A program made the translations under genes and the position numbers. The notes below the pieces were generated by a model. It was not told where the DNA came from, did no database searches, and was given only the letters and a program-made list of their open reading frames with translations. Shown here in pieces: positions 9,922 through 61,432 of a stretch of 64,000 nucleotides of DNA; the stretch's first letter is position 1, and the number at the start of each line of letters is the position of its first letter. Origin of the DNA: Solirubrobacteraceae bacterium (GTDB lineage: Bacteria; Actinomycetota; Thermoleophilia; Solirubrobacterales; Solirubrobacteraceae); contig DATJTT010000019.1 in NCBI GenBank assembly GCA_035503075.1, positions 11,929 through 75,928 of the forward strand, read 5' to 3'.

Positions 9922-11880
9922 TCACTGCGCCGCCGCCGAGCTGCAGCCGCCCGCCGGCGCGACCCCCGCGAAGCGCTGCACGCGGTTGTTGTCGGCGTCG
10001 GCGACCAGCAGCGCGCCCGCGCAGTCGATCGACAGGCCCGCGGGGTCGCTCAGCTCGCCCGGGGCCGCGCCAGGCGCGCCCCATGCGCGCACGAAGCGCC
10101 CGTCTGCGTCGAACTCCTCGATGCGGTCGTTGCCGCCGTCCGCCACGAACACCTCGCCGCGGGCATCCACTGCGATGCCGTCCGGGGACTCGAACCTTCC
10201 TGGCCCGCGACCCGCGCCGCCCCACGCGCGCACGTAGCGACCTGCTGCGGTGAACTCCGCGATCCGGTCGGCGCCGACCTCGACCACGTACACCGCGCCC
10301 GACCGCGCCGTCGCGAGCGCGACCGGAGCGTGAAGCCGGGCGGCGCTCGAGCCCGCATCGCCCCAGGACCCGAGCACCGCGCCCGCCGGGGAGTAGCGCT
10401 TGACCAGGCCTTCGCCGGTATCCGCGACGTACACGTCGCCTTCGCGACCAACCGCCAGCCCGTCCGGCCGCTCGAGGCGTCGCGCTGCGGGCGTCCCAAC
10501 CCCGCCGCCGAGCGTCCCGAGCAGTTCGCCTTCCGCGCTCAGGTGGCGCACCAGGTCGTTTTCCTGGTCTGTCACCCACAGCGTGCCGTCAGCAGCGAGC
10601 GCGATGGCGACGGGCTCGAACAGGTGTTCACCGAGGATCGCCGCGCCGCCGTAAAAGCTTTCGCGGTAGGCGAGCCGGTGGTCGAACAGCTCCACGCGCC
10701 CGCCCACCGTGTCCGCGACGAGCGCCCCGCCTTCGGGCGTCGCGGCGACGTCGCGCGGCAGCATGAACTGGCCATAGGAGCGAGCGGAGACCCCCCAGGC
10801 GCCGAGCCGCCGGCCCGTCGCGCCCAGGATGTCGACCTCATCGGCGGCGGCGTCGGCCACATACACCAGGCCGGAGCGCGAGACGGCGACGGCGCGCGGG
10901 TAGCTCACCTCTTCCGCGCCGAAGTTCGGGTGCAGGCCTTCGCTCGGGCCCTGTGAGGGCGCAAGCGGCCAGGCGGCCAGGAAGCGCAGCTCGGGGCTCA
11001 GCTCAACGACGCGGTGGTTGTTGTCGTCGGCCACATACACCCGTCCGGCCGGGCCGACGGCGACGTCGAACGGGCTCGTGAACTGTCCTTCCCCCGACCC
11101 GAGGCCGCCGGCCTCGCGGGCATATGGACCCCGGGTCCGGAACGCGACGATCCGATCGTTGCCCGTGTCCGCCACGTACAGCTCCTCGCCGCTCACCGCC
11201 AGGCCGTGCGGGCTCTCCAGCTGCCCGGGACCATGGCCCGGCCCGCCGAGGACGAGCGCGTGCGTGCCGTCCAGCGTGAAGCGCTCGATCCGATCGTTGC
11301 CCGTGTCCGCCACGTACACGAAGTCGCCGGACACCGCGATCCCGCCGCCCGGGGGCACGCCCGGCCCGCCGCTGCCGAACTCGAACTGTCCGGGCCGCGA
11401 GCCGGGCTCGCCCCAGGCGCGCACGAAGCGACCTTCGGCATCGAACTGCTCCACGCGGTCATGTTCCGAGTCGACCACATAGACCTCGCCGGCTGCGCTC
11501 ACCGCCAGACCCCCGACCGCGCCGAACTGTCCGGCGCCCGTGCCGCGCGCGCCCCACTGGCCGAGGAAGCGCCCGCCCGCGCTGAAGCGCTGCACGACAT
11601 AGCTGTACTGGTCGGCGACATACACATCGCCGTCGGGCGCGACGGCGAGCGCCTCCGGGTAGCGCAGCACGCCTTCGCCTCGCCGCCCGAGGATCGCCAC
11701 CGAGCTGTACGGACACGGCTCGGCGCCCGGACACGCCCGGCCATGCGCGCCCGCCGCCCGCCGCGCGCGTTCACCGGCACCCGATGGCGCGTCGGCGAAG
11801 GCGCCCAACGCCACCGTCAGCGCGAGCGTGAGCGCGACCAGGGCGTATAGGCTGAGCACGAGGCACTGCAGGCGGTACAT
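9922..11880 (-). CDS. secreted NHL-repeat protein (12 repeats, probable double beta-propeller)
   Basis: N-terminal hydrophobic signal; 12 P.G.AV..G.VYVAD..N.R..F repeats counted by eye. Confidence 0.85.
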   Translation of the reverse strand: MYRLQCLVLSLYALVALTLALTVALGAFADAPSGAGERARRAAGAHGRACPGAEPCPYSSVAILGRRGEGVLRYPEALAVAPDGDVYVADQYSYVVQRFSAGGRFLGQWGARGTGAGQFGAVGGLAVSAAGEVYVVDSEHDRVEQFDAEGRFVRAWGEPGSRPGQFEFGSGGPGVPPGGGIAVSGDFVYVADTGNDRIERFTLDGTHALVLGGPGHGPGQLESPHGLAVSGEELYVADTGNDRIVAFRTRGPYAREAGGLGSGEGQFTSPFDVAVGPAGRVYVADDNNHRVVELSPELRFLAAWPLAPSQGPSEGLHPNFGAEEVSYPRAVAVSRSGLVYVADAAADEVDILGATGRRLGAWGVSARSYGQFMLPRDVAATPEGGALVADTVGGRVELFDHRLAYRESFYGGAAILGEHLFEPVAIALAADGTLWVTDQENDLVRHLSAEGELLGTLGGGVGTPAARRLERPDGLAVGREGDVYVADTGEGLVKRYSPAGAVLGSWGDAGSSAARLHAPVALATARSGAVYVVEVGADRIAEFTAAGRYVRAWGGAGRGPGRFESPDGIAVDARGEVFVADGGNDRIEEFDADGRFVRAWGAPGAAPGELSDPAGLSIDCAGALLVADADNNRVQRFAGVAPAGGCSSAAAQ

Positions 11881-30920: not shown

Positions 30921-33320
30921 TCAGCGACGCAGCAGGTACGTGCGTGTGACGGTGGTGCGCAGCCCGGTGGGGCTGGCGGCGACCACGTGCACGTGCGCGC
31001 GCAGCTCGTCCGAGCGGCCGAGGGCGCGGCGCAGCCGGCGCACGGCGCCGGCCGCGAGCGCCAGGCGCACACGGGCTGCCTTGCGCGCCCGCAGGGCGCG
31101 GGCGGCGGCGATCAGCGCCACCGAGCGGCTCCGGCGCAGGGGGGAGAGGGTGGCGGTGACGAGCACGCGGCAGTCGCGCTTGCAGCTGACGGCGAGGGTG
31201 AGCGCCCGGTCGGAGAGCACGCCCGAGCTGGGCGGGACGGTGAGGCGCAGCACCGGGGGGAGGTTCGGCGGGGGCGGCCACGTTCCCGGGGCGAGACAGC
31301 CGGTGCCGGCGGGGGAGTCCATCTGGAAGCGCTGCACGCGGTTGTTGTCGGTGTCGGCGACGTACACGTCGCCTTCGCAGCCGATCGCGATGGCGGTGGG
31401 TTGGGAGAAGGACCCGAGACCCACCCCGCGCAGGCCCCACTTGTAGAGGAAGCGCCCTTCGGGCGCGAACGCCTGCACGCGGTCGTTCCGGCTGTCCACC
31501 ACGTACACGTCGCCGGCGGCGTCCACGGCGATCCCGGCGGGGGAGCGAAAGCGTCCGTCGGCGGTGCCTCCGGAGCCCCATTCGGCGAGCTCGGCGCCGC
31601 CCGCGGAGAGCTCCACGACGCGGTCGTCGCCGGTGTCGGACACGTACACGTCCCCGTCGGGCGCCACGGCGACCCCTTCGGGATGCTCGAAGCCCGTCGC
31701 GCCGCTGCCGGCGGCGCCGTCGGCCCCTTCGGCGCCCCACTTGGCCTGCAGCTTGCCTTCGGGGCCGTACACGAGGATCCGGTTGTGGTCGCTGTCGGCG
31801 ACGTAGGTCTGGTGGCTGACGGGGGAGATGGCCACGGCGCCGGCGCCCTCGAGCTCCGCCCCGCCGAGCTCGGCGGGCCCGCCGATTTCGCCCAGGTAGG
31901 CGCCTTCGCCCCACAGGCGCACGATGCGCGAGTTGCCGGTGTCGGCGACGTACACCGACCCGGCCGAGTCGACGGCGATGCCCGCGGGGGAGGAGAAGAG
32001 GCCGTCGACCCCCCCGGCGCCCGTCCAACTGCCGAGGTAGGAGTCGCTGCCGGCGGCGAAGCGCTCGATGCGCCCGTCGACGGTGTCGGCGACGAGCAGC
32101 TCCCCTTCCGGTTGCACGGCGAGGCCGGTGGGGGCGGTCAGCTCGCCGGGGCCGCGGGCGGAGACGCCGAAGGAGCGCATGTATTTCCCGTGGGGGTCGA
32201 ACACCTCGATCCGGTCGTTGGCGGTGTCGGCGACGTAGGTGTCGCCGGCGGGGTCGCTGGCGAGGGCGCGCGGGAAGTCGAGCTCGCCCGCTTTCGAGCC
32301 TTCTTCGCCCCAGGCGCCGGCGGGGCGCAGCCGGGGGCTGAGCTTGACCACGCGGTCGTTGCTGTCGTCGGCCACGAACACGTCCCCGGCGGCGTCGAGG
32401 GCGACGCCGTAGGGGAAGCCGGGGTGCGCGGGACCGTCGCCGGCGATCGGGGCCTCGCCTTCGTAGACGCCTTCGGGGCTGAACTTCTCGACGCGGTCGT
32501 TGTCGTCGTCGGAGACGATCACCTCGCTGTCGTCGGCGGCGACCCCGCGGGGGTAGTCGAACTGGCCGGGGCCGGAGCCCTCGGTGCCCCACGCGAGCGG
32601 TTCGCCCCCGTCGAGGTCGAAGCGCTCGACGCGGTCGTTGCCCGAGTCCGCCACGTACACGTGGTCGCCGGCCACCGCGATGCCGCCGCCGGGGGGCTGG
32701 CTGGGGTTTAGCGAGGAGCCGAAGTCGAACTCCCCGAGGCCCGACCCGCGCCTGCCCCACTGGGTGATGTATTCGCCGTCGGGGCCGAACTTCTCGATGC
32801 GGTCGTGGCTCGGGTCCACGACGTACACGTCGCCGGCGGCGTCGACGGCGAGGCCGGAGACGGGGCCGAACTGCCCCGGCCCGGCGCCGTAGGAGCCCCA
32901 CTGGGTCTCGAACTGCCCATCGGCGCTGAACTTCTGGACCACGTAGCCGAGCTGGTCGGCGACGTACACGTCGCCCTCGGTGTCCACCGCGACCGCCTCG
33001 GGGAAGCGCAGCACCCCTTCCGCGCGCTGGCCGATCGTGGTGACGTGGGCGTACGGGCAGGGGGCGGTCCGGGCGGGACCGGATCCCGGGCAGGCTTCGC
33101 CGGGGACGGGCTCGATGGCGGCTTCGCCCTGGCCCTGCGGGGACGGCGCCGGGGGCGACGCCGCGGGCGGCACGGCTCGCCCGGCGGCGGCGGGGGCGCC
33201 CGCCACCCACGCCCACGCGCACAGCGCGATCAGGGTCGCGAGCGCAGATGCGGGGGCGAGCCTGCGCCGGGGGAGCACGATCAAGGCATGAGAGCACGAA
33301 CGTGCGCGTGCGCGTCGCAC
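30921..33320 (-). CDS. secreted NHL-repeat protein (12 repeats) with a C-terminal beta-rich domain
   Basis: Signal-like N-terminus (true start uncertain, possibly about 33286); 12 NHL repeats; paralog of 9922-11880. Confidence 0.85.
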   Translation of the reverse strand: MRRARARSCSHALIVLPRRRLAPASALATLIALCAWAWVAGAPAAAGRAVPPAASPPAPSPQGQGEAAIEPVPGEACPGSGPARTAPCPYAHVTTIGQRAEGVLRFPEAVAVDTEGDVYVADQLGYVVQKFSADGQFETQWGSYGAGPGQFGPVSGLAVDAAGDVYVVDPSHDRIEKFGPDGEYITQWGRRGSGLGEFDFGSSLNPSQPPGGGIAVAGDHVYVADSGNDRVERFDLDGGEPLAWGTEGSGPGQFDYPRGVAADDSEVIVSDDDNDRVEKFSPEGVYEGEAPIAGDGPAHPGFPYGVALDAAGDVFVADDSNDRVVKLSPRLRPAGAWGEEGSKAGELDFPRALASDPAGDTYVADTANDRIEVFDPHGKYMRSFGVSARGPGELTAPTGLAVQPEGELLVADTVDGRIERFAAGSDSYLGSWTGAGGVDGLFSSPAGIAVDSAGSVYVADTGNSRIVRLWGEGAYLGEIGGPAELGGAELEGAGAVAISPVSHQTYVADSDHNRILVYGPEGKLQAKWGAEGADGAAGSGATGFEHPEGVAVAPDGDVYVSDTGDDRVVELSAGGAELAEWGSGGTADGRFRSPAGIAVDAAGDVYVVDSRNDRVQAFAPEGRFLYKWGLRGVGLGSFSQPTAIAIGCEGDVYVADTDNNRVQRFQMDSPAGTGCLAPGTWPPPPNLPPVLRLTVPPSSGVLSDRALTLAVSCKRDCRVLVTATLSPLRRSRSVALIAAARALRARKAARVRLALAAGAVRRLRRALGRSDELRAHVHVVAASPTGLRTTVTRTYLLRR

Positions 33321-47343: not shown

Positions 47344-47610
47344 TCAGTCGAGATTTTCGAGAATCTCGGTAGCGCGCGACCACTGGCTGGGCGCCACGAC
47401 GAGGTAGATGTCACCGCGCCCGTCCCGGTCCAACGGGTGATCAGCGACGCACCCCGCGTCAATCCCGAGCGCTCGCAACTGGTCACGCCATGCCACAGCT
47501 GTGCTCTGGTCCTCGAAGGTGCTGACGGTCTCCCAGCCCTCGAAGCACGGACCGTCGATCGCCACCGGAGGTTCACTAGCGGCGCCAGCCGATCGGCGGA
47601 AAAGACGCAT
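47344..47610 (-). CDS. small hypothetical protein (DUF2007-like)
   Basis: WETVSTFEDQSTA...L.ALGIDA...IYLVV......ATEIL; family call tentative. Confidence 0.55.
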   Translation of the reverse strand: MRLFRRSAGAASEPPVAIDGPCFEGWETVSTFEDQSTAVAWRDQLRALGIDAGCVADHPLDRDGRGDIYLVVAPSQWSRATEILENLD

Positions 47611-47744
47611 GACATCAGCGTACCGTGCGTGTCGCCTGCTCGCTGGACGTTCGTCGGAGATCGCGCGCGACCCTAAAGCACGCTCGCGCGTAACCCGATT
47701 GGGGAGTGCGGCTAGCTCCGCCACTCACGGAGAGCCGGGCCGCT

Positions 47745-47820
47745 AGTGGAAAAAGGCACACCTGCCGCGAGGCGGGCTCGCAAAGCCAGGGGTCTCTCGC
47801 AGATCGCCCAGCTGCCCGGC
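47745..47820 (+). ncRNA. c-di-GMP-I (GEMM-I) class riboswitch
   Basis: GGCACACC / TGCC-GCGA-GGCG GNRA stem / GG / CGCAAAGCC / GGG-GTCT..AGAT-CG-CCC / GCTGCC mirrors known GEMM-I aptamers; P1 is only about 3 bp. Confidence 0.82.
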
Positions 47821-47854
47821 AAGTTCATGAGTCTACACAAGGAGCTTTGCCGTT

Positions 47855-48322
47855 ATGTTTCACTTTTTCCAATCGAGAAAGGGGCGCCTGGCGTTCGGCC
47901 TCGGCGTCTGCCTCATCCTCGCGGCAGTTAGCGCGGTCGCGATCGCTTTCTGGACGGGCGCCGGCGAAGGGACGGGCACCGTCAAGGTCAACCACACCAG
48001 CCCTTCCCTCGAAGTGAGCGGTAGCCAAGCCGAAAACCTGTATCCGGGCGGCAGCGCCGCGATCACGGTTAAGGTCAAGAACACCGACGCCGGCGCGAAC
48101 GGCTACCTGGGCAGGCTGGAAGCGGAAGTCACGGGAACCTCGGCGGCGGAATGCAAAAGCCAGTGGTTCGAAGTCACGCCTGCGTCGCAGGAACCGGCCA
48201 CCGTGCTGGCGCCCGGCGAAACCAAGGAATACTCGGTGAGCCTGAAGATGAAAGAAGAAGCCAGCGTCAACCAGAATGCCTGCAAGGGCGCCACGGTCAC
48301 GATCCACTACACGGCCTCCTAG
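47855..48322 (+). CDS. secreted TasA/camelysin-like fibre subunit (candidate major pilin)
   Basis: Signal ending AIA|FWTGAGEG; NLYPGG...VKNT; C-terminal NQNACKGATVTI resembles TasA-family NL.PG and QN..QG motifs; Cys pair. Confidence 0.65.
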   Translation: MFHFFQSRKGRLAFGLGVCLILAAVSAVAIAFWTGAGEGTGTVKVNHTSPSLEVSGSQAENLYPGGSAAITVKVKNTDAGANGYLGRLEAEVTGTSAAECKSQWFEVTPASQEPATVLAPGETKEYSVSLKMKEEASVNQNACKGATVTIHYTAS

Positions 48323-48349
48323 CCCGGCTGGCCAGGCCGACCGGCTGGG
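48323..48349 (+). terminator. stem-loop between pilin and adhesin genes
   Basis: CCCGGCTGG / CCGGCTGGG, 9 bp with two GU pairs, immediately after the stop. Confidence 0.45.
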
Positions 48350-48371
48350 GTTGCAGAGAAAGGCGACGGCG

Positions 48372-50762
48372 ATGATCAGGCTCAAGCGAATCGCGGTTGC
48401 GACCGCCATTGCGTTGGGCCTGATCGCCCCAGGCGCACACGCGTACTGGTCGGGCAGCGGCGAAGGGAGCGGATCGGCGAGTCTCGCGACGCTCTCGCCG
48501 CCGGCGATCACGAGCGTGACACCGGGCGCTGACACGGTCGAACTGGAATGGTCGCCGGTCACGCCGCCCGGCCCCGGCGTCGTCGAGTACTACGTCACGC
48601 GCGATGGCGGCGCTCCGGGCAGCGGCTGCCCGGGCTCAAGCTCGCCTTCGACGACGACCCGCTGCACCGACACGGGCGTGTCGATCGGCACGCACCAATA
48701 CACCGTCACAGCCGTGTGGCGCAGCTGGACGGCGGAGAGCACAACCAGCACGGTGAGCGTCACATTCGGCGCCGCCACGCACTTCCAAGTAGAAGCCGCG
48801 AGCTCCACGCCCACCGCAGGCGAAGCGGATGACCTCACGATCACCGCCAAGGACGCTGCCGAGAACACAGACGCCAGCTACTCGGGCACGCACAGCCTGA
48901 TCTTCGAAGGCCCCTCCGAAGCGCCCAACGCCACCAAGCCGGTCGTGATCGACCAAGCGGGCGTCGCAAGCAAGCTCGGCCAAGCGACTCCGATCACCTT
49001 CAGCGAAGGCAAGGCGACGGTATCCGGATCGGCCAACGGAGCGCTGAAGCTCTACGACGCGCAGACCACCTCGCTGCAGGTCAAGGAAGGCAGCATCGAA
49101 GGCGCCTCGGGCTCCCTGACGGTCAAAGCGGGCACGGCCAGACGCTTGAGCGTGCCAACGCCAAGCGAACGCGAAGCGGGCGCCGCCTTCAACCTGACGC
49201 TCACCGCACTCGATGAATGGGGCAACGTCGCAACCGGCTACGCGGGCGCAAAGGCGCTCGCATTCAGCGAACCTGCCGACTCGCCCAGCGGCAAGGCGCC
49301 GAGCTATCCGGCGAGCGTCACGTTCACCGCGGGCGTCGGCACCGCCTCCTCGATCAAGCTGTACGACGCCCAGACCACGACGCTCGAGGCCAGCGAAGGC
49401 GCCATCGAAGGCGTCTCGGGCTCGTTCCTCGTCAAGGCGGGGCCGTCCAAGAAATTGAGCGTCACGACGCCAAGCGAACAGGAAGCTGGCGCCGCCTTCA
49501 ACGTCGCGCTCACGGCGATCGACGAATGGGGCAACACCGCCAAGACGTACACGGGGGCAAGGACGCTCACCTGGAGCGGCCCGTCGAGCTCCCCCAGCGG
49601 TCAGGCACCCGAATATCCCGCCTCGGCCACCACGGTGAGCTTCAGCGAAGGCGCGGCAACGGCCTCCGCGATCAAGCTGTATGACGCCCAGAGCACGACA
49701 CTCAAGGCCAAGGAAGGCAGCATCGAAGGGATCTCGGGCTCCTTTACCGTCAAGGCCGCGGCGCCGGCCAGCCTGAGCGTCTCGACCCCGTCCGAACCGA
49801 CCGCGGGCGCCGCCTTCAACGAGACCGTGACTGCCTTGGACGCCTGGCACAACGCGGCCAAGACCTATACCGGCGCAAGGACGCTCACGTGGAGCGGCCC
49901 GTCGAGCTCTCCCAGCGGTCAGGCACCCGAATATCCCTCCTCGGCCACCACGGTGAGCTTCAGCGAAGGCGCGGGCACCGCCTCCGCGATCAAGCTGTAT
50001 GCCGCTCAGACCACGGCGCTCAAAGTGAACGAAGGCTCGCTCTCGGGCACGTCCGGCTCCTTCGCCGTCAAGGCGGGCACGACCACCGACTTCACCATGC
50101 CGACGCCAGCCGAACAGCAGGCGGGCGTCGCCTTCAGCGTGACGCTCACGGCAACCGACGAATGGGGCAACCTCGCAAAGACCTACGCCGGTTCGAAGAA
50201 ACTGACCTTCAGCGAACCATCCGACTCCCCCGACGGGCAGGCGCCAAGCTACCCGGCTGCTGTCACGTTCAGCGAAGGCGTGGGCACGGCCTCGGCGATC
50301 AAGCTCTATGACGCACAAAACACGCAACTGAAGGTCAAGCTGAACACGGTCGAAGGCAGCTCGGGCTCCTTCACCGTGGATGCGGGCGCTGCCGAACACC
50401 TCGCTTGGTCACAGCCAGAAGTGACCAGCGGCGGCTTTAAATCAGGGAGCTCTCCGTTTGATTGCACGACCACCAGCATTGGCCACGGCGCCTTGTTCAA
50501 GGCCCGCGTGAGCGTTACCGATGCCTACGGGAACATCGTCAGCAACCTGGGCGCGACGATCACGGCGAAGGTGGAAAAGGCAAGCGGCGGCGGCACGCTG
50601 GCCAACTCTCGCGGCCTCACGATCCCCGCGTCCGGTCCGGCGGAATCCTCGGCGAGCTTCGAATACACGAGCCCTACGTCGGGCTCGAGCGAAGCGGTGC
50701 TGGCGCTCACCGGCGAAACGGGCACGGCCTATACCGAAGCAGAAGCGCACATTAAATACTAG
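48372..50762 (+). CDS. large secreted FN3/Ig-like repeat protein (candidate adhesin / minor fibre subunit)
   Basis: Signal AHA|YWSGSGEG; FN3-like domain with a Cys pair; five repeats of about 105 aa with D.WGN motif; no LPXTG or TM anchor. Confidence 0.75.
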   Translation: MIRLKRIAVATAIALGLIAPGAHAYWSGSGEGSGSASLATLSPPAITSVTPGADTVELEWSPVTPPGPGVVEYYVTRDGGAPGSGCPGSSSPSTTTRCTDTGVSIGTHQYTVTAVWRSWTAESTTSTVSVTFGAATHFQVEAASSTPTAGEADDLTITAKDAAENTDASYSGTHSLIFEGPSEAPNATKPVVIDQAGVASKLGQATPITFSEGKATVSGSANGALKLYDAQTTSLQVKEGSIEGASGSLTVKAGTARRLSVPTPSEREAGAAFNLTLTALDEWGNVATGYAGAKALAFSEPADSPSGKAPSYPASVTFTAGVGTASSIKLYDAQTTTLEASEGAIEGVSGSFLVKAGPSKKLSVTTPSEQEAGAAFNVALTAIDEWGNTAKTYTGARTLTWSGPSSSPSGQAPEYPASATTVSFSEGAATASAIKLYDAQSTTLKAKEGSIEGISGSFTVKAAAPASLSVSTPSEPTAGAAFNETVTALDAWHNAAKTYTGARTLTWSGPSSSPSGQAPEYPSSATTVSFSEGAGTASAIKLYAAQTTALKVNEGSLSGTSGSFAVKAGTTTDFTMPTPAEQQAGVAFSVTLTATDEWGNLAKTYAGSKKLTFSEPSDSPDGQAPSYPAAVTFSEGVGTASAIKLYDAQNTQLKVKLNTVEGSSGSFTVDAGAAEHLAWSQPEVTSGGFKSGSSPFDCTTTSIGHGALFKARVSVTDAYGNIVSNLGATITAKVEKASGGGTLANSRGLTIPASGPAESSASFEYTSPTSGSSEAVLALTGETGTAYTEAEAHIKY

Positions 50763-50967
50763 GCGATCAAAACCGAGCCGCTTCTCCTCGGCGTCTCCAC
50801 CGCGCAGCCGGTGGGCGGTCCGGAGCTTCTCGAGCCGCTGGCCCGTCGTGTTCGTTTCAAGGCCTGGCGCGGGGCTGCCGATGATCAATGGGTCAGGCTA
50901 TCCCGGTGATGCCGATACAGCTATGTCCTGTTTGGGAATGCGGAATCCGATGAGGAGATCTCAGGCG

Positions 50968-52299
50968 ATGAAAGGTCTGTTTGACCCTGCTGACCCCGGG
51001 CCGGTTGGGCTGGACCGGGTCGTTGCGCTGGCCCAGCGCCATCTCGGACTCGACGTCGTCTTCGTCGCCGAGCTGACGGGCGCCGGGCAGGTCTATCGCG
51101 CGGCCGCCGGAGACGTGGCGTCGTTCAATATCGTGGTCGATGGTCCGGCCTGCGACGCCGCGTTCTCTCGAAGACTGGTGGCAGGCGAGGTGCCGAGCTT
51201 CATCGGCGACACGGCAACCGAGTGCGTCGGTGGGCTGCCGGGTGCTTGCGAAGCGCACGTGGGCTCGGTCATCGGTGTCCCGTTGCGACTTTCAGGCGGG
51301 ACGCCATATGGAGTTCTCTGCGGCTTCAGCCACGCGGCGGACAGTACCCTCGACGAGCGCGACGTCGGCTTCATGTCGATGCTCGGCGAGCTCATTGCCT
51401 ACGATCTAGACGGGAGACGCAGCGAGGAGCTGATCCGGGAAGACATCCTGCGGTTGATCGAGAACGAGAGCGTCCAGGTGACGCAGAACATCGAGATCGC
51501 CTACCAGCCGATCATCGATCTGCTTCGCGGGCACTGTCTGGGGATCGAGGCGCTCGCCCGATTTCCGGAGCCATTTGCCGGGCCTGATGTCACGCTCGCC
51601 GCCGCGAGGACGGTGGGCCTTGCTCTGGAACTTGAACGCCTGCTGATCGTTCAGGCCTGGAAGATGATCGCGTTGCTCGGCCCGGGGCAGTTTTTGGCGC
51701 TGAACGTGTCCCCGGAAGCGTTGGTGGAGCTCGCTCGTCGCGCGAACCTCCGCGAGGATCTCCCACTGAGCCAGCTCGTCGTGGAGGTCACCGAGCACCA
51801 AGTGGTCGAGAGCTACGCCGCTCTCCACAGCGAGCTCGCGCCGCTGCGCGAGCGGGGATTGCGTATCGCGGTCGATGACGCGGGCGCTGGGTACGCGTCG
51901 CTGCGCCATGTGCTGGAGCTGCGACCGGACTTCATCAAGGTCGATCGCTGGCTAATAGACGGAATCGCCGACGATCACGCCCGGCGCGTCGCCGTCGGCG
52001 CGTTCCTGTCGCTCGCCTTGGATCTCGGGTCCAGCGTCGTCGCCGAGGGAGTCGAGCGCCCAGCCGACCTTGCCGCCGTCCGTAGCCTCGGGCTCCATGC
52101 GGCGCAGGGATACTTGCTCGGCAGGCCAACCACCAGCCAGGCTGCCCTGTCCCAATGGATCGGCCCCTCGCCGGCTGCACAGGGGCATGCGCCGCTGGCA
52201 GCGCGGAACGGGCTTGCGCGGACCCGGAAGACCGCGGCCAGGCCCAATACCGCGGCTAGGCCGGCCACGCCGCGCAAGAGGCCCGCTACGCCTTCCTAG
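50968..52299 (+). CDS. GAF-EAL c-di-GMP phosphodiesterase
   Basis: GAF (IGVPL...YGVLCG); AYQPI, EALARF, EVTE, DDAGAGY, IKVD, EGVE, QGY intact; GAGGAG before ATG 50968. Confidence 0.9.
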   Translation: MKGLFDPADPGPVGLDRVVALAQRHLGLDVVFVAELTGAGQVYRAAAGDVASFNIVVDGPACDAAFSRRLVAGEVPSFIGDTATECVGGLPGACEAHVGSVIGVPLRLSGGTPYGVLCGFSHAADSTLDERDVGFMSMLGELIAYDLDGRRSEELIREDILRLIENESVQVTQNIEIAYQPIIDLLRGHCLGIEALARFPEPFAGPDVTLAAARTVGLALELERLLIVQAWKMIALLGPGQFLALNVSPEALVELARRANLREDLPLSQLVVEVTEHQVVESYAALHSELAPLRERGLRIAVDDAGAGYASLRHVLELRPDFIKVDRWLIDGIADDHARRVAVGAFLSLALDLGSSVVAEGVERPADLAAVRSLGLHAAQGYLLGRPTTSQAALSQWIGPSPAAQGHAPLAARNGLARTRKTAARPNTAARPATPRKRPATPS

Positions 52300-54127
52300 G
52301 GCCCGGCGCGGTCTTTCGGGTTTTGCTTCGCGTCACACGCAGCGGCGACGCCAGCCCCTCACGCCGCAAGCCCGGCGCTCGTGCGGCTCGGTTGCGCCCC
52401 GGCTGGCCACGCTGGAAGCTGGTCGCCTCGGAGTCGAGGACGGGCAGGCCGCGCCCTTGCTTCTTGGACCTGTACATCGCCCCATCGGCGCGCTTGACGA
52501 TCTCCTCGGCCGTCATCGCCCCGACCCGTGCGCATGCTACCCCGACGCTCGCACGCACTTCGACGGGATCGTTGGAGAGCGCGAATGCCGTGCTCAGCGA
52601 CGCGCATATCCGGTGTGCGACCTGGATGGCGACCTCGGGCCCGGGGACATCCCGCAAGAGAACGAGGAACTCGTCGCCACCGAGGCGCCCGACGTGGTCC
52701 TCGCCTCGACTTGCGATCTTCAGACGCTCGGCCACAAGCACCAGCAGCTCATCGCCGGCGGCGTGGCCGAGGTTGTCGTTGACGGGCTTGAACTCGTCGA
52801 GGTCGATATAGATGACCGCGGTCATCGTCGAGCCGTCTCCTTCGAGCTCTCGTCGTACCGCAGCCAGGGTCGCTGCACGATTGTAAACACCGGTGAGGGC
52901 GTCAAATGTGGCGCGCCTCTCGAGCTCGAGGCGCGCTCGCGCGCTGTCTGTGACGTCGAGCACAGATGTGATCGCCCCGCTTACCCCGCCGCTCGGGCGC
53001 ATCAGCCTGCGGATGCTCATGAGCGCCGATCGCCGCTCTCCAGACGGCAGCACGAAATCGACCTCGACGTCTTGATCGACGCCCTCATCGAGCACCCGGT
53101 CGAGCGCCGTCTCGAACGTCGCCATAGCATCTCGTGTCAGAGTCCCAAGCAGGGTCGCTACCTCCGGTGCCACGCTTGGCTTGTGACCGTCGGAAGCCGG
53201 CGATGGCCCGTCGACGCGCGAGCTCACGTAACCCGAGCCACGGAGGATGTCCAGCAGACGGGCATTGTGGTATACGACGTTGCGGTTGGTGTCGAGTTGG
53301 AAAAGCCCCTCCGGCATTCCGTCGGTGAGGCGGCGTAGCAGCTCCTCTCGCTCCGCGAGCGCCTCCTGGGCCGCCATCTCGGCCGATACGTCGATTATCT
53401 CGACAAGCACGTGGTTGGAGTCCGCTTGGTTCAGGTAGTTGTGCAGCGTGCTGTCCACCCACATCCAACTCCCGTCCTTGCGCTTGTGGCGCCGACGCGT
53501 GTGCTGATCACGTCGAGTGGACAGCATCGTAAGCCAGCCCTCGATCACGCGCCCCTGGTCTTCCGGGTGGATCTGTTCGAGGATCGACTGGCCGATGAGC
53601 TCCTCGCGCGTATATCCGAACATCTGCGTGAACGCGTCGTCACATTCGAGAACGATGCCACCCTCATCCTCCATGAGCGTCGAGAACCGCGGCGCAGCGG
53701 GCGGCAGCTCCTGGTCGTCGTCGCACGGCTCAGCTGCGAGCTCGTTCGTAGGAATGATCACGCACAACAAAACGCCATGGATCTGACGGAGATCGAGGAA
53801 ATGCAGCGTCGCCCAGCGAGACGGCTTGTCCAGCATGCGCACCTCGCCCTTGGCCGCGCCGTCGTGTTTCGCGCGCTGCCAAAGATCGACGACCGTCGCG
53901 CGGTCGTCAGCGATGACGCCGTCGATCACCGCCCGTCCCTCGATCGCTGCCTGCCCCCACAGCGCCACGGCCCCGGGGATTGGGACGATCAAGCCATTGC
54001 TCGAAAGTCCGCAAACAAGCGCGTCGGGGTGCTCACGGAGCAACGCTTCCGCCGCCCGCTCGACCTGCAGGGTGGTCTGGTTGGCAAGCATTGGGTGTTG
54101 ATCGGGTTGGACGGTTGGGTTTGACAT
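52286..54127 (-). CDS. PAS/PAC-GGDEF diguanylate cyclase
   Basis: PAS domains; DALTGVYNR, DLDEFKPVND..GH..GD, I-site RGED, GGDEF intact. Confidence 0.92.
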   Translation of the reverse strand: MSNPTVQPDQHPMLANQTTLQVERAAEALLREHPDALVCGLSSNGLIVPIPGAVALWGQAAIEGRAVIDGVIADDRATVVDLWQRAKHDGAAKGEVRMLDKPSRWATLHFLDLRQIHGVLLCVIIPTNELAAEPCDDDQELPPAAPRFSTLMEDEGGIVLECDDAFTQMFGYTREELIGQSILEQIHPEDQGRVIEGWLTMLSTRRDQHTRRRHKRKDGSWMWVDSTLHNYLNQADSNHVLVEIIDVSAEMAAQEALAEREELLRRLTDGMPEGLFQLDTNRNVVYHNARLLDILRGSGYVSSRVDGPSPASDGHKPSVAPEVATLLGTLTRDAMATFETALDRVLDEGVDQDVEVDFVLPSGERRSALMSIRRLMRPSGGVSGAITSVLDVTDSARARLELERRATFDALTGVYNRAATLAAVRRELEGDGSTMTAVIYIDLDEFKPVNDNLGHAAGDELLVLVAERLKIASRGEDHVGRLGGDEFLVLLRDVPGPEVAIQVAHRICASLSTAFALSNDPVEVRASVGVACARVGAMTAEEIVKRADGAMYRSKKQGRGLPVLDSEATSFQRGQPGRNRAARAPGLRREGLASPLRVTRSKTRKTAPGPRKA

Positions 54128-60017: not shown

Positions 60018-61028
60018 TTATGCCTGGCGAGGCAGCCCGAACGACTCGACCAGCGACGGCGTGCGGAAGTGGATGATCTCCTCGATTCGCTGCGCCTCGA
60101 GGGTGAGGACGGTTACGCCGTGTGGGGCGTAGACGCCGGAGCTGTCGAGCTCGTATGCGCCGACTGCCAGCTGACCGTTGGCTGCGACGGGCAGCATCCG
60201 CCAACTGCGCGCGCCGTCGAACACCGCGCTGCGCAGCACCATCTCGATCGCTTCGCGCCCGTGATACCAGCTCGGGATCGGGGGCATCGCGAGCGTCGCG
60301 GTGTCGGTGAGCATGCCGACGATCGTGTCGACGTCGTTGCGTGCCCAGGCTTCGACATAGCGTGCGACGATCGCTTTCAGCTGCTCGTCGCCAAGTGAGT
60401 GGAGCGTCGCCTGCTGGCTGCGGTCCGGCCGTCGCTCGTCCAGGGTCGCGTGCGCGCGCTGCAGGGCGCTGTAGACCGAGGCCGGCGTCGTCTCGAGCGC
60501 CTCGGCGACCTCCGCACCGGAGAAGCCGAGAACGTCGCGGAGGATGAGCACCGCCCGCTGCCGAGGCGGCAGCAGCTGGAGCGCGGCGATGAACGCGAGC
60601 TCGATGCTCTCTCGCTGCTCGTAGCGGGCTTCCGGGCCGGCGAGGCCGTCGTCGAGGCCGAGTTGCTCGTCGGGATACGGGTCCATCCACACGGACTCCA
60701 GCAGCGGCGCTCGGATCGGGGCGTGTGGATCGGAGGGTGGGCCATAGTCGAGCGGCAGCACACGCGCAGGCCTGCGCTCGATCGCGCGCAGGCAAACGTT
60801 CGTGGCGATCGAATACAGCCAGCTTCGCAGCGAGCTTCGCCCCTGAAACGACGACAGGCTCCGCCAGGCGCGCAGCAGCGTCTCCTGCACCGCGTCCTCG
60901 GCGTCCTGCAGGGAGCCGAGCATCCGGTAGCAGTGCGCGTGCAGCGCCCGCCGGTGCGGCCCCGCCAGCTCGGCGAACGCTGCGTGATCCCGTCCGATAG
61001 CTGCCTCGATGAGCTGGGAGTCGGTCAT
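60018..61028 (-). CDS. sigG: ECF sigma factor with C-terminal SnoaL-like domain (SigG-like)
   Basis: LHAHCYRMLGS.QDAEDAVQETLLRAWR, LPPRQRAVLILRDVLG, MPP.P.WY.GR, AANGQ. Confidence 0.85.
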   Translation of the reverse strand: MTDSQLIEAAIGRDHAAFAELAGPHRRALHAHCYRMLGSLQDAEDAVQETLLRAWRSLSSFQGRSSLRSWLYSIATNVCLRAIERRPARVLPLDYGPPSDPHAPIRAPLLESVWMDPYPDEQLGLDDGLAGPEARYEQRESIELAFIAALQLLPPRQRAVLILRDVLGFSGAEVAEALETTPASVYSALQRAHATLDERRPDRSQQATLHSLGDEQLKAIVARYVEAWARNDVDTIVGMLTDTATLAMPPIPSWYHGREAIEMVLRSAVFDGARSWRMLPVAANGQLAVGAYELDSSGVYAPHGVTVLTLEAQRIEEIIHFRTPSLVESFGLPRQA

Positions 61029-61432
61029 CCTGTCCCTCGTACGAGGGTACCCTTCGGCTGCCAGAGCGCGATCTCGCCGCCGTCGCTGCTGGCCAGCACG
61101 CTGCGCCATCCCGCCGGTCCCTCGCGGGGCGCGAGCAGCACCGCTGCTCCAAGCGCCCGCCCGCGCTCGGTCATCGCCTCGATCTCTGGCACCTCCACAT
61201 ACGGAAGCCAGATCGGCCGCCGCGCACCGCACTCGACGATCCCGCCATCGAGTGCGCCGCCAAGGGCCAGCGCGTGATAGGTGCCCGACCGACCGTGCAG
61301 TCGCTCTGTCCGCCAACCGAGCAGCTCGCGATAGAACGTGCTCGCGCCCGATAGGTCGTGAGTGTGCAGCTCGAGATGCACGAGCTCGCCTGCTCGCTTA
61401 TCGCGTGTGTCGCTGGGTTGAAAATCCGTCAT
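61025..61432 (-). CDS. VOC/glyoxalase family protein
   Basis: VHLELHT.DL..A..FY.ELLGW, WLPYVEV, GGEIALWQ; native start may be altered by the IS end. Confidence 0.8.
   Translation of the reverse strand: MTDFQPSDTRDKRAGELVHLELHTHDLSGASTFYRELLGWRTERLHGRSGTYHALALGGALDGGIVECGARRPIWLPYVEVPEIEAMTERGRALGAAVLLAPREGPAGWRSVLASSDGGEIALWQPKGTLVRGTG

Follow-up and report, generated by a model that had tools for sequence, protein, structure and literature searches.

A conserved, riboswitch-associated operon for two secreted surface proteins in Solirubrobacterales

Examples of c-di-GMP-I (GEMM-I) riboswitches acting on surface proteins include the adhesin riboswitch Bc2 of B. thuringiensis and the riboswitch-controlled pilin and adhesin genes of C. 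difficile. Among extracellular fibres, TapA is known to carry the same N-terminal element as its fibre subunit. A preprint on AbpX (10.64898/2026.01.04.697558) reports that signal peptidase I processes the fibres of the TasA superfamily and that the second mature residue provides an aromatic clamp. The Vc2 aptamer contacts c-di-GMP through G20/A47/C92 (PMC4744006). A published consensus for WhiG2 promoters is T(A/C)AA-N16-GCCGATAA (PMC12871210, PMC8325347), and Thermoleophilia carry both WhiG and the c-di-GMP-binding RsiG (PMC8325347).

The locus described here lies in a 64,000-nucleotide stretch of DNA (the window) from a soil or wetland actinobacterium belonging to an uncultured lineage of the order Solirubrobacterales. 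GC3 of the island around it is 0.79-0.83, and a number of the genes on either side are higher (0.92 for the MFS gene and 0.95 for the aldehyde dehydrogenase gene). Its regulatory theme, a c-di-GMP riboswitch with secreted surface proteins, is a known one, and the protein family under control is uncharacterised. The conserved unit has five parts, namely a sigma-28/WhiG-type promoter, a 5' hairpin, an aptamer, a 155-aa protein and a protein of about 800 aa. Across 46 related Solirubrobacterales loci the two genes stay with each other and with the aptamer: the gene pair is kept in 44, and our own covariance model R1 places the aptamer upstream of the small gene in 39 of them and also in L058. L058, the closest relative found, has the aptamer and the gene pair, and its small protein is 78% identical. 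When the neighbouring genes of the 46 loci were clustered, no third conserved neighbour was common to more than seven of them. The overall best explanation, to which we give reasonable though far from full credence, is that the two genes function as an operon of their own rather than as part of a four-gene circuit, with the promoter, switch and fibre model set out below.

The preliminary description had joined this operon with two downstream c-di-GMP enzymes into one local circuit of writer, eraser, RNA sensor and output. Its account of the enzymes themselves holds. The GAF-EAL phosphodiesterase (50968-52299, + strand; Pfam GAF_2 2.6e-9, EAL 7e-47) is predicted to be intact, as the motifs EAL, EVTE, DDAGAG, EGVE and QGY are all found. 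The PAS-PAS-GGDEF diguanylate cyclase (52286-54091, - strand; GGDEF 8e-39, Pfam and NCBIfam) is likewise predicted intact, with GGDEF at 52667-52681, a DLDEF metal site and an RGED (RxxD) I-site five residues upstream. The two genes converge, their stop-containing 3' ends overlapping by 14 nt at 52286-52299 as first reported; in both cases the gene call is shorter than the EAL or GGDEF ORF given in the raw list.

The circuit itself, in which both enzymes would specifically set the signal for the adjacent riboswitch, appears improbable to us. The two genes are indeed intact, directly adjacent and overlapping; a GGDEF/EAL gene is the immediate upstream neighbour in L013, L041, L034 and L024, and DGC/PDE genes are often found in WhiG regulons of Actinomycetota (PMC12871210). 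However, while synteny upheld the riboswitch and the gene pair, orthologues of this EAL/GGDEF pair lie beside the operon in 0 of the 46 loci, and no EAL or GGDEF gene was found near the operon in L058. Neither enzyme gene is preceded by a sigma-28 motif or an aptamer, and a 205-nt gap and separate orientation speak against co-transcription. The five immediately adjacent cases among 47 loci are about what the observed local density (roughly one GGDEF/EAL gene per 66 kb) would produce, and several of them are close relatives. Domain-level GGDEF/EAL matches do occur within 10 kb on either side in 12/46 loci, in varying positions and orientations that do not imply linkage. The GAF-EAL and PAS-GGDEF genes are neighbours outside the conserved module, in a lineage-specific juxtaposition, and would supply the cell-wide c-di-GMP pool like any others.

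Upstream of the aptamer is a sigma-28 (FliA/WhiG)-type promoter (47674-47701, +) that had been overlooked and that alters the expected physiology. It consists of a -35 element TAAA (47674-47677), a 16-nt spacer and a -10 element CCCGATTG (47694-47701), and transcription from it is predicted to start at about 47708. TAAA-N14-17-CCGAT occurs a single time in the 64 kb, where chance would give 0.21 matches, and the exact pattern is found again, identically placed, in 33/46 loci, against only three off-site matches in about 0.92 Mb of loci. Allowing TCAA and [CT]CGAT, the promoter, counted as T(A/C)AA-N15-17-NCCGAT, is found in 44/46 loci, those that have no riboswitch included.

The aptamer (47746-47820, +; GCGA tetraloop) stands directly upstream of the two-gene operon, and a GEMM-I-like riboswitch was rightly recognised at the outset. 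The family needed correction, in that the c-di-GMP-I-type element matches not RF01051, as assumed, but the GGC variant RF03167 (c-di-GMP-I-GGC; 60.8 bits, E 7e-12), the sole Rfam match in the 64 kb. This score lies above the gathering score of 59, if only just, and raises the prospect of a true GGC-type variant with another ligand, which we regard as very unlikely. At the diagnostic model position 37, where the GGC consensus has G, the window and each of the 30 aligned loci have A; a pair of aptamers scanned in L022, the orthologue among them, reach 54.3 and 52.2 bits, under the RF03167 gathering score; and the interhelical C-G pair is canonical. Model positions 10, 37 and 75 are G, A and C, equivalent to G20 (47755), A47 (47782) and C92 (47815), and since this is the canonical triad, c-di-GMP is the likely ligand despite the best Rfam model. 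Aptamers of the related loci score 86-106 bits with R1.

Between promoter and aptamer, at the predicted transcript start, the leader holds a 5'-terminal hairpin (47708-47743, +) with an outer stem GCGGC/GCCGC and an inner stem CUCCG/CGGAG, which contains an anti-SD-like AGCUCC (47714-47719) and GCCGGGCCGC (47734-47743, +). Covariation supports it: both-side changes occur in 3/5 outer and 2/4 inner pairs, and 88-93% of cells are paired. The outliers L017, L018, L037 and L044 still form a hairpin with differing sequences. Metatranscriptomes from peat and freshwater contain transcripts of homologous leaders, whose contigs start inside the hairpin; none reaches the promoter. Downstream, the Shine-Dalgarno (SD) sequence GGAGCU (47841-47846) and the AUG of the small gene (47855-47857), read from the sequence as one spaced element (47841-47857, +), are the likely target of the switch. 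No + strand terminator was found between aptamer and small gene, and the SD lies 21 nt past the aptamer; c-di-GMP therefore most likely acts on translation initiation, or on mRNA stability.

A candidate mechanism follows from the pairing potential of the leader. Without ligand, GCCGGGCCGC would pair with the 3' half of the aptamer, GCUGCCCGGC (47811-47820), C92 equivalent included, and the freed AGCUCC would pair with the SD, shutting translation off; with ligand, the aptamer would be locked and the hairpin would re-form, hiding the anti-SD and allowing translation. Complementarity between the SD and 47714-47719 holds for 94.6% of the cells in the alignment (L018 lacks it), and the alternative long-range helices are 95-97% pairable and so nearly invariant that covariation cannot confirm them. 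These helices form the unconstrained minimum free energy structure (-64 kcal/mol, against -45 kcal/mol with the aptamer forced). Forcing the aptamer raises mean SD accessibility from 0.21 to 0.33 across 30 leaders, but in the window's own leader the SD stays paired (0.24 to 0.19, ViennaRNA), so that folding leaves both signs possible. We lean modestly towards an ON switch.

The same module built around an OFF riboswitch is a serious though less probable reading. High c-di-GMP would then close the operon at two levels, by RsiG-c-di-GMP sequestering WhiG and by a block of translation, and its product would be a structure made when c-di-GMP is low, serving dispersal, motility or the scouting of places to attach, similar to the WhiG-dependent type IV pili of Rubrobacter. 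Such a design agrees with the retention of the promoter in nearly all loci and with the paired SD of the window's own forced-aptamer fold, as well as with type-1 leaders, in which the GGCAAG that immediately follows P1 is able to base-pair with the CUUGCC of the SD-AUG spacer, and the resulting helix could stack on a ligand-stabilised P1. That pairing, however, is lost in many type-2 leaders, mean SD accessibility goes up when the aptamer is formed, and the RsiG layer requires the host sigma-28 factor to belong to the RsiG-controlled WhiG2 clade, not the flagellar WhiG1 clade. If RsiG-c-di-GMP sequesters WhiG in this host, a riboswitch of the ON type would work against its own promoter, which counts against our best explanation.

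Both structural genes of the operon were present as first described. The small one (47855-48322, +) encodes a 155-aa protein, A, with a signal peptide and AIA↓FW site, a flexible segment (32-50), a beta-sandwich (51-155) and two conserved Cys. AlphaFold2 (AF2), run on a 144-sequence alignment, gave pLDDT >95 at residues 50-155 and low values at 1-49. The family numbers 663 representatives at 50% identity and shares the motifs AxA-(Y/F)(W/F)(T/S)..GxGxG and ...NQDACKGA, and in the 144 diverse sequences conservation of A29 (position -3) and A31 (position -1) is 90% or higher. No Pfam or NCBIfam family matched it. The original label TasA-like had drawn solely on the signal peptide and the N-terminal motif, and comparison did not support it: Pfam, NCBIfam, PDB sequence and Foldseek searches gave no significant match to TasA, AbpX or other donor-strand pilins. 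The best Foldseek match (E 4.8e-3, TM 0.3-0.4) was to generic Ig-like folds, with AbpX amid noise (E 0.4-0.7).

The large gene (48372-50762, +) encodes a 796-aa protein, C, with a signal peptide (AHA↓YW), a YWxGxGEGxG N-terminus, an FN3-like domain, Ig-like repeats and a C-terminal domain. The gene contains a 318-nt tandem repeat of 3.6 copies (TRF), and the protein has five to six KLYxAQ / DxWGN Ig-like units of about 105 aa; no Pfam family matched. Orthologues adjoin the small gene in the 44 paired loci at 49-69% identity, and (small)-x-(small)↓(Y/F)W is retained in every large orthologue whose N-terminus is intact. The predicted mature N-terminus, AxA↓YW, is common to the small and large proteins. 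In distant lineages the operon has three genes, A-B-C, of which the third is C (37% identical to the window's large protein); hhalign shows the domain of B to be a homologue of residues 52-155 of A (98.3%, E 2e-14), and B-type genes are absent from the Solirubrobacterales loci.

We postulate that both proteins are exported by Sec and that signal peptidase I cleaves each behind its AxA, giving them an identical mature N-terminus, (Y/F)W-x-x-G-x-G-x-G. The small protein would be a beta-sandwich subunit whose flexible N-terminal extension drives donor-strand-type polymerisation on the surface, and the large, adhesin-like FN3/Ig-repeat protein would dock on the fibre end by the same N-terminus as a tip adhesin. 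The three-gene version suggests an anchor-shaft-tip fibre, in which B, a membrane anchor with an A-like domain but no N-terminal motif, would form the base.

An alternative without any fibre, which we consider unlikely though well worth weighing, is that the operon encodes a small Ig-like/CARDB-like protein and a large adhesin which each reach the surface on their own, either secreted or anchored by the N-terminus. Their common motif would then be a signal (juxtamembrane, for processing or for modification) and not a donor strand. The similarity detected is only generic Ig-like or CARDB-type, and the Gly-rich shared motif, a poor strand former, is unusual for a donor strand and counts against the fibre model. 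No assembly genes were found in the window or related loci, nor was a dedicated signal peptidase, sortase or anchor gene present in the window or the gene calls of related loci. Against this stand the conservation of AxA at -3/-1, the strict sharing of the N-terminal motif by two otherwise unrelated proteins, and a division of parts (A donor and acceptor, B anchor and acceptor only, C donor only) that fits end-to-end assembly.

How, then, does the proposed fibre operon compare with described systems? Chaperone-usher pili (Fim/Pap) offer a purely conceptual parallel, in that donor-and-acceptor shaft subunits and end subunits with only one of the two are proposed here; FimF/G are among the weak Foldseek matches, but the host is presumably monoderm and has neither chaperone nor usher. 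With the TasA superfamily (TasA/TapA, AbpA, AbpX, CanA) the locus shares a small secreted subunit with predicted signal peptidase I processing, whose second mature residue is aromatic and whose beta-sandwich bears a flexible N-terminal extension. Further shared features are an accessory protein with the same N-terminal element, and links to biofilm and c-di-GMP. It differs in having no significant sequence or Foldseek similarity, a sandwich core (about 100 aa) that is smaller than the jelly roll of TasA type, no dedicated signal peptidase beside it, and an FN3/Ig-repeat partner of about 800 aa.

Compared with the RsiG-(c-di-GMP)-WhiG switch of Streptomyces sporulation and Rubrobacter type IV pili, the target genes are not pil, neither a sigma nor an anti-sigma gene was seen, and c-di-GMP would additionally enter through a riboswitch on the same transcript. 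Common to both are the promoter consensus T(A/C)AA-N16-GCCGAT (PMC8325347, PMC12871210), a surface-appendage output, as proposed here, and the wider clade, Thermoleophilia having WhiG and RsiG. Finally, unlike the GEMM-I riboswitches of Bacillota, the present one belongs to Solirubrobacterales (Thermoleophilia), is terminator-less with probably translational control, has candidate switching sequences 5' of the aptamer and a sigma-28/WhiG-type promoter, scores about or under the Rfam thresholds and precedes an uncharacterised protein family. It nevertheless shares with them the three-helix aptamer, the G/A/C contact triad, a position directly upstream of secreted surface-protein genes, and, as predicted here, control in cis by c-di-GMP.

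The elements named in the preliminary description of this 6.4-kb stretch were all recovered by Rfam, Pfam/NCBIfam, gene calls and a motif check. A c-di-GMP-I-type aptamer, which matches RF03167 over its full length (47746-47820, + strand), is followed 35 nt downstream by a small gene of 155 aa (47855-48322, +) and, after a gap of 49 nt, by a large gene of 796 aa (48372-50762, +). Downstream of the large gene lie a GAF-EAL phosphodiesterase gene (50968-52299, +) and a convergent PAS-PAS-GGDEF cyclase gene (52286-54091, -), with a 3' overlap of 14 nt. The domains of both enzymes were matched in Pfam and NCBIfam, and their motifs are complete, including GGDEF, the DxD metal site and an RxxD I-site (RGED) in the cyclase, and EAL, ExxE, DDxGxG, EGVE and QG in the phosphodiesterase. 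Judged by motif, the pair is predicted to be catalytically intact. GC3 is 0.71-0.83 in the genes of the island (47344-54091) and higher in several genes that flank it (0.92 in MFS, 0.95 in aldehyde dehydrogenase); a difference in expression or in history may lie behind this. The remaining genes of the window serve ordinary metabolism, transport and regulation, and a gene scan of the rest of the 64 kb found no flagellar, pilus, signal-peptidase, sortase or WhiG genes. The window also carries two large NHL-repeat beta-propeller proteins (9922-11880, -, and 30921-33320, -) and an ECF-type sigma factor fused to a C-terminal SnoaL_2 domain (60018-61316, -), adjoining a Polyketide_cyc2 protein.

Cyclase, phosphodiesterase, riboswitch and fibre genes had been read as one self-contained c-di-GMP circuit, a reading that was not borne out by comparison with 46 related loci drawn from the GTDB species set, all from uncultured Solirubrobacterales/Solirubrobacteraceae MAGs, in line with the Thermoleophilia assumed in the preliminary description. 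The small and large genes occur together in 44 of these loci, at 52-68% and 49-69% identity, respectively (tblastn), and an aptamer lies ~35 nt 5' of the small gene in 39, as detected with R1, a covariance model that we built from 30 orthologous aptamers. The R1 search found no aptamer in L027, L030, L031, L035, L039, L043 and L045. Orthologues of the enzyme pair were found at the operon locus in none of the 46 loci, nor in the closest relative found (L058); tblastn with the window's EAL and GGDEF proteins gave scattered domain-level matches, at variable positions, in 12 loci. Likewise, when genes were called and clustered across all loci, none besides the small and large pair was common to more than 7. 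In L058, the small protein is 78% identical and both the aptamer and the gene pair are kept, but the flanks consist of TPP enzymes and hydrolases, and c-di-GMP enzymes are absent from the locus. Thus, the conserved module is the leader, the small gene and the large gene, and the enzyme pair beside it is a juxtaposition unique to the window genome among the loci compared. We therefore reject a dedicated local module in which cyclase and phosphodiesterase are coupled to their effector, since the synteny is not conserved. More generally, a GGDEF or EAL gene adjoining an effector is not by itself evidence for a dedicated circuit. In several MAGs the operon is present as two or three paralogues (L008/L039; L007/L040/L045; L020/L024), and L008 and L039 represent a single MAG with one copy that has the riboswitch and one that lacks it.

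The promoter is an element that the preliminary description missed. Alignment of the upstream regions revealed a conserved motif, TAAAG-N15/16-CCGAT(G/A), which in the window comprises TAAA (47674-77), a 16-nt spacer and CCCGATTG (47694-701), together spanning 47674-47701 on the + strand. The published WhiG2 promoter is T(A/C)AA-N16-GCCGATAA, in which the central CGA is invariant (PMC12871210; PMC8325347). The window promoter shares the features of the sigma-28 (FliA/SigD/WhiG) class, namely T(A/C)AA, a spacer of ~16 nt and a -10 element GCCGATAA with central CGA, and the conserved motif is accordingly a predicted sigma-28 (FliA/WhiG) consensus promoter. The pattern TAAA-N14-17-CCGAT has a single match in the 64 kb (chance expectation 0.21). 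The exact pattern stands at the same relative position in 33 of the 46 loci, with 3 matches elsewhere in ~0.92 Mb, and when TCAA and [CT]CGAT are permitted, the promoter is found in 44 of the 46, mostly with a 16-nt spacer. Every riboswitch-less locus retains it except L045, where this is not clear; its distance to the start codon in riboswitch-less loci is 35-76 nt. Neither whiG, fliA nor rsiG was found in the 64-kb window; members of the Thermoleophilia (Conexibacter, Patulibacter, Thermoleophilum) are known to carry WhiG and a single-motif RsiG (PMC12871210; PMC8325347).

Downstream of the promoter, the leader begins with a hairpin (47708-47743, +), the first base of which is the predicted transcript start (~47708). 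The hairpin shows covariation, with 3 of 5 outer pairs and 2 of 4 inner pairs altered on both sides, and divergent loci have a hairpin here too, of different sequence. Homologous leaders are covered, to a depth of up to ~50, by contigs of three peat metatranscriptomes and one freshwater metatranscriptome, which shows that they are transcribed in nature. These are assembled contigs and not 5'-end data; they start within the 5' hairpin, none extends to the promoter, and their starts agree only weakly with the predicted one. The exact window sequence was found in wetland metagenomes, solely in DNA runs, and a search for RNA-seq of the exact organism returned none. By analogy with Bacillus subtilis hag, we considered whether the 5' hairpin and Shine-Dalgarno (SD) sequence are under CsrA-type control, and dropped the idea. 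Upstream, a divergent 88-aa gene (47344-47610, -) has no Pfam match; a longer 126-aa version in the raw ORF list is probably an over-extension, because it would overlap the conserved promoter and hairpin.

The aptamer is the sole Rfam match in the 64 kb, scoring 60.8 bits (E 7e-12) against RF03167 (c-di-GMP-I-GGC) and thereby exceeding the gathering score of 59 by less than 2 bits. It has the P1 and two hairpins around a junction that define c-di-GMP-I (GEMM-I, Rfam clan CL00126). Over 30 orthologues the hairpin stems are 91-100% paired, with one compensatory pair; P1 is weak, with 2-3 pairs, and the aptamer as a whole is near-invariant (90% mean column identity). We take the 'GGC' of the variant's name to denote a G in place of A47, in the numbering of the Vc2 aptamer. 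At model position 37 of RF03167, which corresponds to A47, the consensus is an upper-case G, but the window and every aligned orthologue have A. The GGC variant was reportedly defined by Weinberg et al. in PNAS in 2017. The ligand contacts of Vc2 are G20, A47 and C92 (PMC4744006), and their equivalents here by covariance-model alignment, G47755, A47782 and C47815, are invariant in 30 orthologues. With A at the diagnostic position and canonical equivalents of G20 and C92, we read the aptamer as a predicted c-di-GMP binder and not as a true GGC variant. No c-di-GMP riboswitch reported from Actinomycetota or Thermoleophilia turned up in a limited literature search, which is no proof of absence.

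One related locus, L022, holds two aptamers. The orthologous one (L022:9890-9964) scores 54.3 bits against RF03167, under the gathering score. The second, divergent and of c-di-GMP-I type (L022:8103-8178, -), scores 54 bits with R1 and 52.2 bits, again under the gathering score, with RF03167, and has A at position 47. It lies 18-20 nt 5' of another secreted-protein gene, one with PATSN repeats (L022:7282-8082, -); c-di-GMP riboswitches of the lineage would thus regulate more than one secreted protein. Because the L022 scores fall under the gathering score, public MAG annotations probably lack such aptamers, and with several of them under Rfam thresholds, standard pipelines probably miss them.

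How the aptamer might act on the operon is suggested by its surroundings. A search of the + strand found no intrinsic terminator, which excludes a terminator platform, and the SD sequence GGAGCU (47841-46) lies 21 nt 3' of the aptamer; this points most naturally to translational control. Folding by RNAalifold and of single sequences agrees on one ligand-free structure, in which the SD is paired to AGCUCC of the 5' hairpin (47714-19), and GCCGGGCCGC (47734-43) pairs with GCUGCCCGGC (47811-20), the latter comprising the 3' strands of aptamer P1 and P2 and the C92 equivalent. These alternative helices can pair in 95-97% of cells and are too invariant for proof by covariation. A two-state model follows, in which the ligand would lock the aptamer, the 5' hairpin would then re-form, and the anti-SD would thereby be hidden, turning translation ON. 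When leaders were folded with and without a forced aptamer, from two different 5' ends, mean SD accessibility over 30 leaders was 0.21 without and 0.33 with the forced aptamer; the window's own sequence did not show this rise. The thermodynamic trend towards ON is weak, and the window's own sequence is ambiguous. An OFF switch, which would be coherent with RsiG-WhiG control, is a serious rival to the ON switch. Two other platforms were rejected. An SD-enclosing hairpin, GGCAAG/CUUGCC, is not universal, being conserved only among type-1 leaders, and an extended P1 formed via GCCGGG/CCCGGC within the aptamer would pair the C92 equivalent, for which reason this helix was retained as an anti-aptamer helix only.

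Neither the small nor the large protein matched a Pfam or NCBIfam family. The small protein (A) belongs to a family of 663 representatives at 50% identity, with a conserved N-terminus made up of a basic n-region, a hydrophobic core, AxA and then (Y/F)(W/F)(T/S)xxGxGxG, followed downstream by PGG, N, C...WF and NQDACKGA. The AxA and the (Y/F)(W/F) directly after it are at least 90% conserved. An SPase-I signal is thus predicted, as is an N-terminal extension whose residue at mature position 2 is aromatic, both as in the TasA superfamily. AF2 with a deep alignment, which replaced a discarded shallow-alignment model (pLDDT 59.5), confidently predicts a beta-sandwich of 7-8 strands over residues 51-155; residues 1-49 are of low confidence, and residues 32-50 lie outside the predicted fold. 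The description of this protein as "TasA-like" found no support, as the sequence similarity is not significant and Foldseek gave no TasA-type jelly-roll fold. Against the PDB, Foldseek returned nothing at E<=1e-3; its top matches were generic Ig-like folds (TM 0.3-0.4), PapD-like and FimF/G proteins appeared among the matches, CanA ranked 20 (probability 0.35), and the 50 matches listed included no TasA, AbpA or AbpX entry. Of 40 family members, only 2 matched Pfam Peptidase_M73 (E about 2e-3), and 1 each matched TIGR04088 and TIGR04090. AbpX came up in profile searches at E 0.4-0.7, amid arrestin and PmoB noise, and a profile search (A2) of a 5.8-billion-protein set returned close relatives only. 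A literature search on actinobacterial c-di-GMP riboswitches or a TasA connection turned up nothing relevant. Membership in the TasA superfamily is thus not established.

The large gene (protein C) contains a 318-nt tandem repeat, corresponding to five to six units of ~105 aa, and the protein has no match among PDB sequences. In the large proteins, cleavage by signal peptidase is predicted after (small)-x-(small), directly before (Y/F)W. A Gly-rich segment resembling the one in the small protein comes next, then an FN3-like domain, and the repeats that follow vary in number. The large proteins measure 524-1035 aa over the 46 loci (587 aa in L058), which suggests gain and loss of 318-nt units. 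In three distant lineages (L050:2278-4698; L053:8001-9391; L054:8001-10838), which have no riboswitch at these loci, two further genes, B and C, come after the small gene. B combines a membrane anchor with a domain homologous to small-protein residues 52-155 (hhalign 98.3%) and is without the N-terminal motif, and C is a large-protein homologue (37% identity) in which the motif is present. This division, with donor and acceptor in A, anchor and acceptor only in B, and donor only in C, suggests end-to-end assembly, in which B would serve as the base of a fibre, A as its shaft and C as the adhesin at its tip.

The conserved operon is predicted to encode two secreted proteins from an uncharacterised family, under a sigma-28/WhiG-type promoter and a c-di-GMP riboswitch gate, and here it happens to adjoin a phosphodiesterase and cyclase pair that is intact by motif. 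A more ambitious reading, to which we give only a slim chance, is that a single transcript under dual c-di-GMP control of opposite sign, limited to a pulse, encodes new chaperone-free donor-strand fibres of Actinomycetota, with B as anchor, A as shaft and C as tip adhesin. RsiG-c-di-GMP would hold WhiG back from the promoter, and translation would need c-di-GMP via the riboswitch, with an unusual expression platform 5' of the aptamer. Since the two effects would be opposite in sign, the operon would be made solely in a narrow c-di-GMP window or pulse.

The module offers a testable output for c-di-GMP and a WhiG-type sigma factor, and control at the promoter and RNA levels can be dissected here on the same mRNA. 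It is strongly conserved and transcribed in nature, in an abundant, uncultured lineage of soil and peat, and a large uncharacterised family gains a concrete assembly hypothesis. The locus is a novel form of an already known regulatory theme. The assembly that we infer for A, B and C resembles donor-strand fibres, which undergo SPase-I processing and carry an aromatic clamp at mature position 2 (AbpX preprint, 10.64898/2026.01.04.697558).
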